A DNA stretch of 32,000 bases, taken from contig CP104013.1 of NCBI GenBank assembly GCA_025839675.1, positions 4,230,001 to 4,262,000 of the forward strand, read 5' to 3'. The position numbers were made by a program, and so were the translations under genes. Of the stretch, positions 16,509 to 26,636 are shown in pieces. The notes beneath the pieces were generated by a model. The model saw only the letters and a list, made by a program, of their open reading frames with translations, was not told the origin of the DNA and made no database searches. The stretch comes from Candidatus Lokiarchaeum ossiferum (GTDB taxonomy: Archaea; Asgardarchaeota; Lokiarchaeia; Sigyniarchaeales; Promethearchaeaceae). The first letter of the stretch is position 1; every line of letters begins with the position of its first letter.

Positions 16509-16868
16509 TTAGATATTTTGCATGTCTTCTAAGAAATTTTTCTTAATGTAATTATGATTTTGAAGCCATGTGGATTGGGTACGAGTATATCGCCAAATGA
16601 TGTGGGCTTTGCGCTTTTTACCTTCTTTTTCCGTTTCAAAGTACCACGGACTTAAAATGACTAAATCGCCAACGCGTGTCCACATTCGTTTTTTGATTTT
16701 ACCCCGAATAAGCCCCATATAGAGTGTACCGTCTTCTCCCTTCACGGACATATGTTCACCACCATATATTTCCGTCACGACTCCCAATATTTCTTCATTT
16801 CTATAATTGGGAATTCTTGGGCGCTTAGGTGTAGCATCGGCTTGATTTCTTCTTCTATTTTTAGGAAT
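16509..16868 (-). CDS. eif1A: Translation initiation factor aIF-1A (eIF1A homologue); 5' boundary uncertain
   Basis: The OB-fold core is LGVVTEIYGGEHMSVKGEDGTLYMGLIRGKIKKRMWTRVGDLVILSPW. The track start (TTG 16787) cuts off an in-frame basic N-terminal segment, IPKNRRRNQADATPKRPRIPNYRNEEI, that is typical of aIF-1A. The frame is open up to 16889 and contains no ATG, GTG or TTG. The end given here is a candidate ATT codon at 16868 (see findings). Confidence 0.8.
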   Translation of the reverse strand: MPKNRRRNQADATPKRPRIPNYRNEEILGVVTEIYGGEHMSVKGEDGTLYMGLIRGKIKKRMWTRVGDLVILSPWYFETEKEGKKRKAHIIWRYTRTQSTWLQNHNYIKKNFLEDMQNI

Positions 16869-24326: not shown

Positions 24327-24721
24327 TTTAATAAAATCATATGAAATAATCCAAGATCCGATTTAAAAATAGGGAAAATGGGCGGACAATTTTTCCCCAA
24401 ACTTTAAATCCGTAAAATATAATGTTCCGTTATGAAAGAATTAACAAAAACCAAAATTCGCATGTTTTTCGGTTATGTGTTTTCATTTCTATTTCATTCC
24501 TATCCTACAGTGATCGTTGGAAATGCGGTTGCAAAAGGAAAGAAAAAGAAAAAAAAAGAAACAGAATAAAAAAAATACAAATTTGGTTTGGTGAAATGGA
24601 ATTCTAAAATAACAATGTTTTTTTGAAATGCTACTTTTCTAACATTACTTTTTCTTCTAAAACTCTATTGAAAAAAAAGGGATTTTAGGAAGAAACAATC
24701 ACTATTATATAGGTAAGAAAC

Positions 24722-25483
24722 ATGTCACCTGATGATATTAATATTACAGAGCAAAAAGAATCAACCATTTTTGCCGTACGAACTACTATTGGACAAGAAA
24801 AATCTGTTCTGACCAATATATTTAACCGATTAAAAGTTTTAAATCCCTTTCCTGATTTAAAGGCGTTAATGATTGCTGAAGAATTGCGAGGTTATGTATT
24901 TGTTGAAGCAACTCATCAACGTGATGTCATGATCACTATTGCTGGATTACGCCACATCAAGGGTAAAATTGTTGGTTCTATCTCACTTGATTCGATCTCT
25001 CATGTTATCTCCCCACGCAAAGTTACTGAAATTTTAGAGGAAGGTGATACTGTAGAAATTGTATCCGGAATTTTTATGGGCCAAAAAGCTCAAGTCATCC
25101 GAATGCCGAAAGAAGGGGCCAAAGAAGAAGTTACTTTAAGGCTTTTGGATTCTGATTCTGCTATATCTATCAAAATTCATGGTGATTTCTTGAAATTGAT
25201 TGAAAAAGGTGCTCGTCATCAAGAAGAGTATATCATTAAGGATATGGAGGTCAGTGATGGAACAACAATTCCTGCGAGTGAAGATGATTCGGAAGGAGTT
25301 ACTGTTGTGGTAGATGGAGCTTCAGAGGGTAGCGATGAAGAATTATTTGATTTTGGTGAATCTGCAGACGAAGATGGAACTGATGATGAGGATTACGATG
25401 AAAGTTCTGTGGATCGGGAAAAATCTGATGATGAGGATATCGATGAAGACGAAGATGATGAGTGGTCTAAATTTGGTTTCTGA
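24722..25483 (+). CDS. spt5: Transcription elongation factor Spt5 (NGN + KOW) with ~90-aa acidic C-terminal extension
   Basis: The NGN domain reads IFAVRTTIGQEKSV...LRGYVFVEATHQ...IAGLRHIKG. The KOW domain reads EGDTVEIVSGIFMGQKAQVIRM...EVTLRLL. Residues 171-253 contain 36 Asp/Glu by my count and end DEDEDDEWSKFGF. Confidence 0.9.
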   Translation: MSPDDINITEQKESTIFAVRTTIGQEKSVLTNIFNRLKVLNPFPDLKALMIAEELRGYVFVEATHQRDVMITIAGLRHIKGKIVGSISLDSISHVISPRKVTEILEEGDTVEIVSGIFMGQKAQVIRMPKEGAKEEVTLRLLDSDSAISIKIHGDFLKLIEKGARHQEEYIIKDMEVSDGTTIPASEDDSEGVTVVVDGASEGSDEELFDFGESADEDGTDDEDYDESSVDREKSDDEDIDEDEDDEWSKFGF

Positions 25484-25491
25484 TTTTTTTT
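25484..25491 (+). terminator. Oligo-T tract (T8) immediately after the spt5 stop; candidate archaeal intrinsic terminator
   Basis: The stop codon tga is followed directly by tttttttt. Archaeal RNA polymerase terminates at oligo-T runs. Confidence 0.35.
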
Positions 25492-25553: not shown

Positions 25554-26636
25554 ATGCACGGATTCTTTTATGTCGGAGTATTAAATTTGAAAGATGGATT
25601 CCCCCTTGTTGAATTCAAAGATCTGACTTTTAGGAAGCCTGATTTACAAATAAATTTCATTAAAGCATTGATCGATCAAGGTATTTCCTTTCTCGATATG
25701 GAAATGGCTCATGAAATGAATTCGCTTCAATTGCAGTTAGAAAATTCTCCCTATCCCTTTGTATTTTATTTTTTTAAGGGGCGTCAAACACTTCTTATGG
25801 TTGTCTCAGAGAAATATAATAAGACTATCTTCAATTTAATGGAACAAATTGTAATGGAGTTTGAACATGAAATTGATCTTTCCAGTGAAAATGATATGCA
25901 AAAGGAAAAAATAGTTGAATTAACAATTAAAAATCTTGCAGGCAATCTTTCACAATTTTTAATCCCAAGTTTTTTAATCCCTGAGATTAATCCTAATGCT
26001 CTTTTTGATTCATTTTCTTCCTTTTTTGCCCAAAATGATGATGTTTCTGTTATTTATGATTTGATTGACGGTTCATGGACACTTTCTGATATATTTGAAC
26101 GGGTTGAAATTGATCAAAAACTTGTAAATGAAATAATTTTTAATCTCTGGGTAAATGATCTTATTTATTTTCGGTTTCATTATTATGATTGGGATGTTTT
26201 TGAAGGCCTCCAAAATAATAAAAATTATCTCGAAGATGGAAATCCAAATAATGTGGCCCTAATCAACAAGTATAATAGCAATAAAATTATCCGTGTAATC
26301 CAACTTTGTCAAGATCCAATTTCATACAAGGAAATTTTGGGACAACTTGATATTACCCGTACGAAACTGAATAAATATATGTCTGAGTTAATCTTCTTGA
26401 AAATTATTGAAAAAAAGCCTATGATTCCACACTTTTCTCATATTTCAGAAGATATTGTTCCTCTTTTATCTATGCAAGGTTTTTCTGATGAAGATTTTTA
26501 TATTTTTAAAAAACTGGAGTCTAATCTTGATGGGAAAGTTTGTCTTGATGATGTTGCTTTAGAAATACAGCGAGATTCAATTAAAATCAAAAAACTTTTA
26601 GATAAATATAATGCTGCAATTAAGATTATCGATTAA
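25554..26636 (+). CDS. Hypothetical protein; possible N-terminal longin/roadblock-like domain followed by winged-helix-like segments
   Basis: This 360-aa ORF has an AGGAG motif 8 nt upstream of the ATG. I recognise no family motif. The domain guess comes only from hydrophobic patterning (see findings). The segment ISYKEILGQLDITRTKLNKYMSELIFLKIIEKK looks like a wHTH. Confidence 0.65.
   Translation: MHGFFYVGVLNLKDGFPLVEFKDLTFRKPDLQINFIKALIDQGISFLDMEMAHEMNSLQLQLENSPYPFVFYFFKGRQTLLMVVSEKYNKTIFNLMEQIVMEFEHEIDLSSENDMQKEKIVELTIKNLAGNLSQFLIPSFLIPEINPNALFDSFSSFFAQNDDVSVIYDLIDGSWTLSDIFERVEIDQKLVNEIIFNLWVNDLIYFRFHYYDWDVFEGLQNNKNYLEDGNPNNVALINKYNSNKIIRVIQLCQDPISYKEILGQLDITRTKLNKYMSELIFLKIIEKKPMIPHFSHISEDIVPLLSMQGFSDEDFYIFKKLESNLDGKVCLDDVALEIQRDSIKIKKLLDKYNAAIKIID

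Follow-up and report, generated by a model that had tools for sequence, protein, structure and literature searches.

What does the transcription elongation factor Spt5 of Candidatus Lokiarchaeum ossiferum carry at its C-terminus, and what might this appendage do? The question is raised by the spt5 gene in a stretch of 32,000 nucleotides (hereafter the window; assembly GCA_025839675.1, contig CP104013.1, positions 4,230,001 to 4,262,000 of the forward strand), in which the reading frame continues for about 90 residues beyond the conserved domains. An initial annotation, made from the letters alone, described this continuation as a hyper-acidic tail and proposed several functions for it. No transcription factor other than Spt5/NusG is known to be shared by all domains of life. 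Its archaeal form is regarded as a minimal protein of NGN and KOW, and full-text literature searches gave no account of an Asgard Spt5 with an acidic C-terminal tail.

As set out below, a whole Asgard order, including the cultivated Promethearchaeum syntrophicum, has a single Spt5 that ends in a conserved acidic arm, tipped by an invariant Trp.

A Canonical Core with 90 Additional Residues

The part of the protein preceding the tail had been taken for a normal archaeal Spt5, and this was borne out by the profile matches. The NCBIfam model TIGR00405 (Spt5 equivalog) matched residues 17–163 with 109.4 bits (cut-off 69.95), covering model positions 1–143 of 145. Pfam Spt5-NGN was found on residues 16–95 (53.5 bits) and Pfam KOW on residues 107–126 (20.6 bits, slightly below the cut-off of 22.3), with only 14 residues before the NGN domain. 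AlphaFold2 (AF2) yielded predicted local distance difference test (pLDDT) values of 83–93 over most of the core, and Spt5 chains of the PDB could be aligned with residues 15–166. Identity of the core to the best non-Loki representatives was 34–39%. Judged by its domain matches, the protein belongs fully within the archaeal Spt5 family and lacks the eukaryotic Spt5 architecture.

In the genome (6,035,313 bp, a closed single contig), one Spt5 scored above the TIGR00405 cut-off, accompanied by a normal, small Spt4 (48.8 bits). The genome was also searched for a second, tail-less spt5, which the initial annotation had considered; none was present, the sole other match being a KOW-like hit of 14.7 bits. 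Because this Spt5 is the only copy in the genome, the tail is located on an essential factor.

The canonical archaeal protein, composed of NGN and one KOW, thus shares with the present one the core over residues 15–163, the single copy and the Spt4 partner, but not the 90 extra C-terminal residues or the position of the gene, which here does not lie beside rpl11. The solved Spt5 proteins of M. jannaschii (4zn1), P. furiosus (3p8b) and T. kodakarensis (9bct) are 147–152 aa long and end 3–4 residues past KOW, in agreement with the earlier statement that archaeal Spt5 normally terminates shortly after this domain.

Composition of the Tail and Its Conserved Motifs

The 90-residue tail contains 38 Asp/Glu (D/E), 5 K/R and 7 aromatic residues. 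A recount of its last 83 residues reproduced the numbers first reported, 36 D/E and 4 basic, and the islands EELFDFGE, DEDYDE and DDEWSKFGF were all found in the tail sequence. No tandem repeats were detected in the tail DNA, so that it does not resemble the C-terminal repeat region (CTR) of eukaryotic Spt5, and comparison of the tail with PDB sequences gave no match to any solved structure.

Conservation was evaluated in an alignment of 70 diverse relatives, in which each column was scored by the fraction of its commonest residue. The mean value was 0.75 in the folded core and only 0.30 in the linkers of the tail. Two segments stood out from these linkers, motif A (0.56 over residues 207–213) and the C-terminal motif B, whose value of 0.80 over residues 243–251 was above that of the folded core.

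Motif A follows the consensus acidic-x-Φ-[FY]-[ST/D]-F-[GD]-[DE]-[DE] (LFDFGE in the present protein). F211 was conserved in 90% of the sequences, position 209 was aromatic in 76%, and the position of E213 was acidic in 94%. Between the two aromatics, most sequences have Ser/Thr and the present protein has Asp; tails of the Sigyn-type family f4 bear EYTFGEE at this site. In motif B, an acidic run is followed by D-[DE]-W-[SAT]-K-F-x-[FYM] (DDEWSKFGF here). W248 was invariant, while D246, K250 and F251 were conserved in 94%, 94% and 96% of the sequences, respectively, and positions 243–247 were acidic in 99–100%.

Based on the same alignment, AF2 assigned the tail a pLDDT of 44–50 without secondary structure, rising up to 57–60 at the last 13 residues, and the tail is accordingly predicted to be intrinsically disordered. 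Since the motifs are conserved while the linkers drift, and the AF2 model of the tail is disordered, the pattern is typical of a disordered segment that bears short linear motifs. The tail is very probably a functional, motif-bearing part of the protein.

The motifs were also sought elsewhere in the genome. When the genome was scanned in all six frames, motif B was unique to Spt5, and motif A on other proteins was rejected, as only chance-like matches were obtained. A genome-wide screen for acidic tails (16 or more D/E among the final 40 residues and 2 or more aromatics among the final 10) was passed by four open reading frames, among which Spt5 was the most extreme with 22/40. As Spt5 tops this screen and the tail with its tip is kept in 140 relatives, the acidic-tail pattern is beyond chance.

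Conservation and Origin of the Tail

A search of 5.8 billion proteins yielded 162 relatives. The best 120 of these 162 were 235–311 aa long, apart from a few fragments, and their source names included Promethearchaeota and Lokiarchaeota archaeon, Promethearchaeum syntrophicum and Candidatus Harpocratesius. Spt5 frames found in 40 genomes of the same order were all of 238–404 aa. Among the distinct relatives from this order, all 140 of 140 ended in an acidic run with a Trp; the tip read WSKF in 66 and WAKF in 57, mostly with 5–6 residues after the Trp. Their tails measured 63–136 aa, with a median of 38% D/E and a median net charge of −23. The initial annotation would have been undermined by a tail absent from relatives; instead, conservation extended across the whole order.

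These data bear directly on whether the tail could be an artefact of a missed stop or frameshift, or a neutral, functionless low-complexity expansion. Its composition is indeed of low complexity, as such an explanation would have it. However, frame and C-terminal motif are the same in 140/140 independent assemblies, the Trp is invariant, the genome is assembled as one closed contig, and the DNA contains no tandem repeat. The conservation of the same-frame terminal motif across independent assemblies makes a missed stop or frameshift very unlikely, and artefact and neutral expansion alike are effectively refuted.

The distribution of the tail was determined in 301 Asgard genomes, in 289 of which Spt5 was detected. 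Long Spt5 frames were limited to the window's own order, Lokiarchaeales, with its families f1–f4; one f4-type protein bears the name Candidatus Sigynarchaeota. Two genomes from other orders of the same class had Spt5 proteins of 163 aa and 207 aa, and the lengths in most other Asgard families were 155–210 aa. In a scan of 1.84 billion representatives, the long C-tail occurred only in top matches of Loki or Sigyn type.

A tree was constructed from cores only, the tails having been removed beforehand. All 30 long-tailed sequences that it included fell on one side of a branch with a Shimodaira–Hasegawa-like approximate likelihood ratio test (SH-aLRT) value of 98, and one state change suffices to explain them. 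From this single long-tailed side it follows that the tail was gained once, at the base of the order Lokiarchaeales. Because the single gain lies inside Lokiarchaeales and the tail was not found in the other sampled Asgard families, it was invented in parallel and is not a pre-eukaryotic trait passed on by descent. For the same reason, namely its origin inside Lokiarchaeales, the tail is not a direct description of the eukaryote ancestor.

A smaller counterpart was seen more widely. In many short Asgard Spt5 proteins, the C-terminal 6–19 residues consist of an acidic run with a hydrophobic or aromatic end, for example EREETEEEELLEL, SKFEEEEEEEEEEFHL, ATEKEEEEGEYLL, EEEQDEDSDF, ...EEEELLEL, ...EEEEFHL and, in family f11, ...DEDSFWA. 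As such ends occur in many Asgard families, the Loki tail may expand an older small tip; the similarity of these ends suggests that a tip function is older and was expanded in Lokiarchaeales.

Proposed Function and Competing Explanations

The mechanism proposed for the tail is intermolecular docking, to which a probability of roughly 0.6 is assigned. The tail would form a disordered acidic arm on the NGN-KOW core of Spt5 bound to RNA polymerase (RNAP). Its acidic linkers, keeping charge but not sequence, would display the internal motif A and the C-terminal motif B, and these motifs would insert aromatic side chains into a pocket of a basic or hydrophobic partner. The docked partner might thereby remain attached to the elongating polymerase or be transferred there.

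By analogy, histone or chromatin proteins are the leading partner candidate, with about a third of the probability given to docking. The analogy is drawn from eukaryotes, in which the acidic N-terminal region of Spt5 (Spt5N) and the acidic C-tail of Elf1 contact exposed histones during nucleosome passage (PMC12462365). Spt5N binds H3-H4 via a short motif with few conserved residues, including hydrophobic ones, namely F-x3-E-x2-V (F146, E150 and V153 in S. pombe), and the acidic tail of Spt5 has been described as unique to eukaryotes (PMC8886531).

The genome of Ca. L. ossiferum encodes nine histone-fold genes, three of them with Lys-rich N-tails, and its Elf1 is likewise extended. It measures 206 aa (2628036–2628656 of the genome, + strand, outside the window), compared with the usual ~80 aa, and consists of a basic N-tail, a Zn ribbon, a three-helix bundle (residues 76–156), an acidic disordered stretch and a C-terminal tip. 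The bundle was predicted confidently (pLDDT 86–94). The tip reads D-x-G-F-L-E-[FW], in which D-x-G-F-L-E is invariant. Among Elf1 frames from 151 Asgard genomes, lengths of 192–261 aa were found in families f1 and f3, as against 75–134 aa in all other families. The identification of the bundle with a known domain was rejected, since Foldseek returned only generic three-helix bundles, including MIT domains, at an insignificant E of about 1.

It is tentatively proposed, at odds well below even, that the Spt5 tail and the extended Elf1 together constitute a transcription-coupled histone-handling module, which would capture or displace histone dimers, including the Lys-tailed paralogues, while RNAP travels through chromatin. 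If this is true, the acidic-tail solution of Spt5/Elf1, described in the literature as eukaryote-only, would have arisen independently in a prokaryote. Close homologues of the tailed histone paralogue were found in every f1 and f3 genome sampled and in f20, with weak matches in f26, although the short query makes this a weak test.

Several points weigh against a role in histone handling. The resemblance of the tail to the Spt5N motif F-x3-E-x2-V (PMC8886531) is only loose: in motif A, F209 and E213 stand at i and i+4, but position i+7 is without a conserved hydrophobic residue. Such a tail is dispensed with by other histone-bearing archaea and by other Asgard families. Compared with the eukaryotic tail, the present one is attached to the opposite terminus and emerges from KOW, near the RNA exit, and not from NGN. 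Its co-distribution with the Elf1 extension and the tailed histones derives from one or two lineages and has no statistical weight. A dedicated globular partner, for instance RNAP or a termination or translation factor, could account for the invariant Trp-x-Lys-Phe tip just as well. The TFIIS N-terminal domain (TFIIS-N, TND), a receptor for acidic-aromatic motifs, was sought and rejected, as the genome gave no credible match (17.6 bits, with an internal stop).

Docking may also be directed inwards. An autoinhibitory or nucleic-acid-mimicking tail would fold onto the basic surfaces with which KOW, NGN or the RNAP cleft bind nucleic acids, with the aromatic tip as a latch, and would gate the loading of Spt5 or its contacts with RNA and DNA. 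There are familiar cases of this kind: the C-tail of SSB acts on its own OB fold, and region 1.1 of sigma70 is placed in the RNAP channel. The very high negative charge across relatives (median −23) is consistent with such a role, the higher pLDDT of the tip (57–60 compared with 44–46) could reflect a weak intramolecular contact, and the presence of the motifs on no other protein of the genome fits a partner in the same complex. The core is nevertheless not notably basic (23 D/E compared with 21 K/R), and AF2 produced no ordered docking of the tail; this explanation is regarded as unlikely.

A further explanation takes up a resemblance noted in the initial annotation, that of the tail to ribosomal stalk proteins. 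Such a tail would dock translational GTPases or the ribosome and so couple transcription to translation. In archaea, the C-terminus of aP1/aP0 binds aEF1A, aEF2 and aIF5B. The design is shared, with an acidic run and then a short hydrophobic tip of i/i+3 spacing (W248, F251). The gene neighbourhood points in the same direction: in other Asgard families the stalk operon rpl11-rpl1-rpl10-rpl12 directly follows spt5, the short Spt5 tails of those families likewise terminate with an acidic run and L/F, and in Lokiarchaeales spt5 adjoins the gene of translation initiation factor aIF1A. Gene neighbourhood is, however, weak evidence, and the genome's own aP0 and aP1 have canonical ends, ...EEEPAGLGALFG (PAGLGALFG), with which the Spt5 tip DDEWSKFGF shares no residue pattern. 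The resemblance therefore holds for the style of an acidic run with a hydrophobic tip and fails at the level of residues. Because these ends differ from the Spt5 tip, stalk mimicry is weakly supported, and a stalk-like role of the tail appears quite improbable.

Finally, the Spt5 tip might dock on a co-evolved protein of the elongation complex, for example the Elf1 bundle of f1 and f3, bridging the polymerase cleft. In eukaryotic complexes, Elf1 sits beside Spt5-NGN on RNAP. The bundle, acidic linker and invariant tip of Elf1 are present only in f1 and f3, and family f4, whose Elf1 is without the bundle, has an Spt5 tail that stops right at the Trp and is devoid of x-K-F. On the other hand, the Spt5 tail and its Trp are present in f4 and f2 and hence predate the Elf1 bundle, the correlation comes from two lineages only, and the bundle lacks a significant structural match. 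Such an arrangement is considered very doubtful.

For the docking arm, W248/F251 and F209/F211 offer a mutable handle on what the archaeal elongation complex recruits. This handle bears on whether chromatin-coupled elongation evolved before eukaryotes or in parallel with them.

Comparison with Known Systems

Eukaryotic Spt5N is likewise a long acidic, unstructured appendage of Spt5 with a short motif anchored by hydrophobic or aromatic residues (PMC8886531, PMC12462365). It precedes NGN, whereas the present tail follows KOW, and the two differ in motif sequence and are of independent origin. Eukaryotic Spt5 also has multiple KOW domains and CTR repeats, in contrast to one KOW and no repeats here. 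The earlier description of the tail as a eukaryote-like elaboration is therefore retained in part: it is a genuine lineage-specific elaboration, but a parallel C-terminal gain, as the eukaryotic acidic region is N-terminal.

The aP1/aP0 stalk tail similarly carries an acidic run and a short hydrophobic tip on a flexible linker, which gives both the look of a docking element. The stalk tip L-G-x-L-F-G is not matched by DDEWSKFGF, and the host protein and the machine also differ.

The C-tail of bacterial SSB combines a disordered linker with an acidic tip ending in Pro-Phe; it serves as a partner hub and can fold on its own domain. The Spt5 tail may be compared with it in design, with a disordered linker, an acidic tip and a terminal aromatic residue, while protein, motif and process are unrelated. 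A similar analogy may be drawn with acidic histone-binding tails (Spt5N, MCM2N and the C-termini of FACT), with which the tail appears to share acidic disorder and conserved hydrophobic or aromatic anchors, in design only.

Features of the Locus and Gene Neighbourhood

The coordinates of all features are collected in Table 1.

Table 1. Features of the spt5 locus; positions are those of the window.
Feature	Position	Strand	Basis and remarks
spt5 gene	24722..25483	+	253 aa + stop; open reading frame call; genome's sole Spt5
NGN-KOW core, residues 17–163	24770..25210	+	TIGR00405, Pfam, AF2, PDB chain alignment
Acidic C-terminal tail, predicted disordered, residues 164–253	25211..25480	+	Composition, AF2, relatives' tails
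Motif A, DEELFDFGE, residues 205–213	25334..25360	+	70-sequence alignment
Motif B, C-terminal tip DEDEDDEWSKFGF, residues 241–253	25442..25480	+	Alignment; 140 distinct relatives
Upstream AT-rich intergenic region, 395 bp	24327..24721	.	Presumed promoter location
T8 run directly past the stop TGA	25484..25491	+	Sequence; likely oligo-T archaeal terminator
aIF1A gene	16509..16787	-	phmmer match, genome 4246509–4246889; 7.9 kb from spt5
360-aa gene downstream of spt5	25554..26636	+	70 bp gap; syntenic within family f1

The upstream gap, estimated at ~390 bp in the initial annotation, and the T8 run after the stop were both confirmed by measurement. No hairpin terminator was found after spt5, and no Rfam family matched across the window. 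The impression that the gene stands alone needs one correction: the 360-aa gene follows it closely on the same strand. A homologue of this gene is located directly downstream of spt5 in eight loci of family f1, and a weak HTH_7 match was its sole Pfam signal. It was rejected as a conserved partner of spt5, since the synteny stops at f1 and the downstream gene of f3 is unrelated by BLASTP.

Neither secE nor rpl11 was found near spt5 at this locus, as the initial annotation had observed; the rpl11-rpl1-rpl10-rpl12 cluster of this genome lies ~670 kb away. The gene immediately after spt5 is rpl11 in 31 non-Loki Asgard loci, an arrangement found in 0/29 Lokiarchaeales loci. Conversely, aIF1A and spt5 were no more than 1.5 kb apart in 22/30 loci of Lokiarchaeales and in 0/47 loci of other Asgard archaea. 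In f3, aIF1A is co-directional with spt5 and precedes it; in f1 and f4, the two genes are divergent. The aIF1A-spt5 linkage in Lokiarchaeales thus replaces the spt5-rpl11 linkage of other Asgard families; in the present genome, ~8 kb of other genes are inserted between aIF1A and spt5. Two changes accordingly accompany the tail in Lokiarchaeales, the enlargement of Elf1 in most members and the relocation of spt5 from the ribosomal-protein cluster to aIF1A.

In f3, the gene downstream of spt5 encodes ~260 aa (L010:2235-3029) and has no Pfam domain. By eye, the N-termini of the f1 and f3 downstream genes have the look of a small alpha/beta domain (roadblock- or longin-like).

Additional Observations on Histones and Spt5 Variants

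The three tailed histone genes were located at 2335708–2335983 (+), 3348033–3348308 (−) and 4593375–4593698 (+) of the genome, and their N-tails are rich in Lys, Ala and Pro (MAKKKAPAKKKKAAPKK...). Two pairs of near-identical histone genes were also noted, at ~4.065 Mb and ~6.025 Mb.

Variation of Spt5 was observed at other positions of the protein as well. In Asgard family f11 (76 surveyed genomes; L070–L073, P0133), a C2H2 zinc-finger-like insert is present inside the NGN domain, exemplified by DVWECPHCAEQFASKEATLDHMKK and followed by a Lys-rich stretch; the C-terminus of this Spt5 is an acidic run with DSFWA. Several metagenomic archaeal homologues (P0146, P0159, P0161, P0142 and P0158) carry a long, very acidic N-terminal extension directly before NGN, for example 188 aa with 72 D/E or 209 aa with 76 D/E. 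These extensions end in ...EEEDFG or ...EEEPFFEKG, and their position is eukaryote-like, although this feature has been described as unique to eukaryotes (PMC8886531). In other archaeal homologues (P0156, P0157, P0164, P0169, P0172, P0174, P0187 and P0190), NGN is preceded by a non-acidic N-terminal domain of ~120–165 aa, and one cluster member of this group is named Thermoplasmata archaeon.

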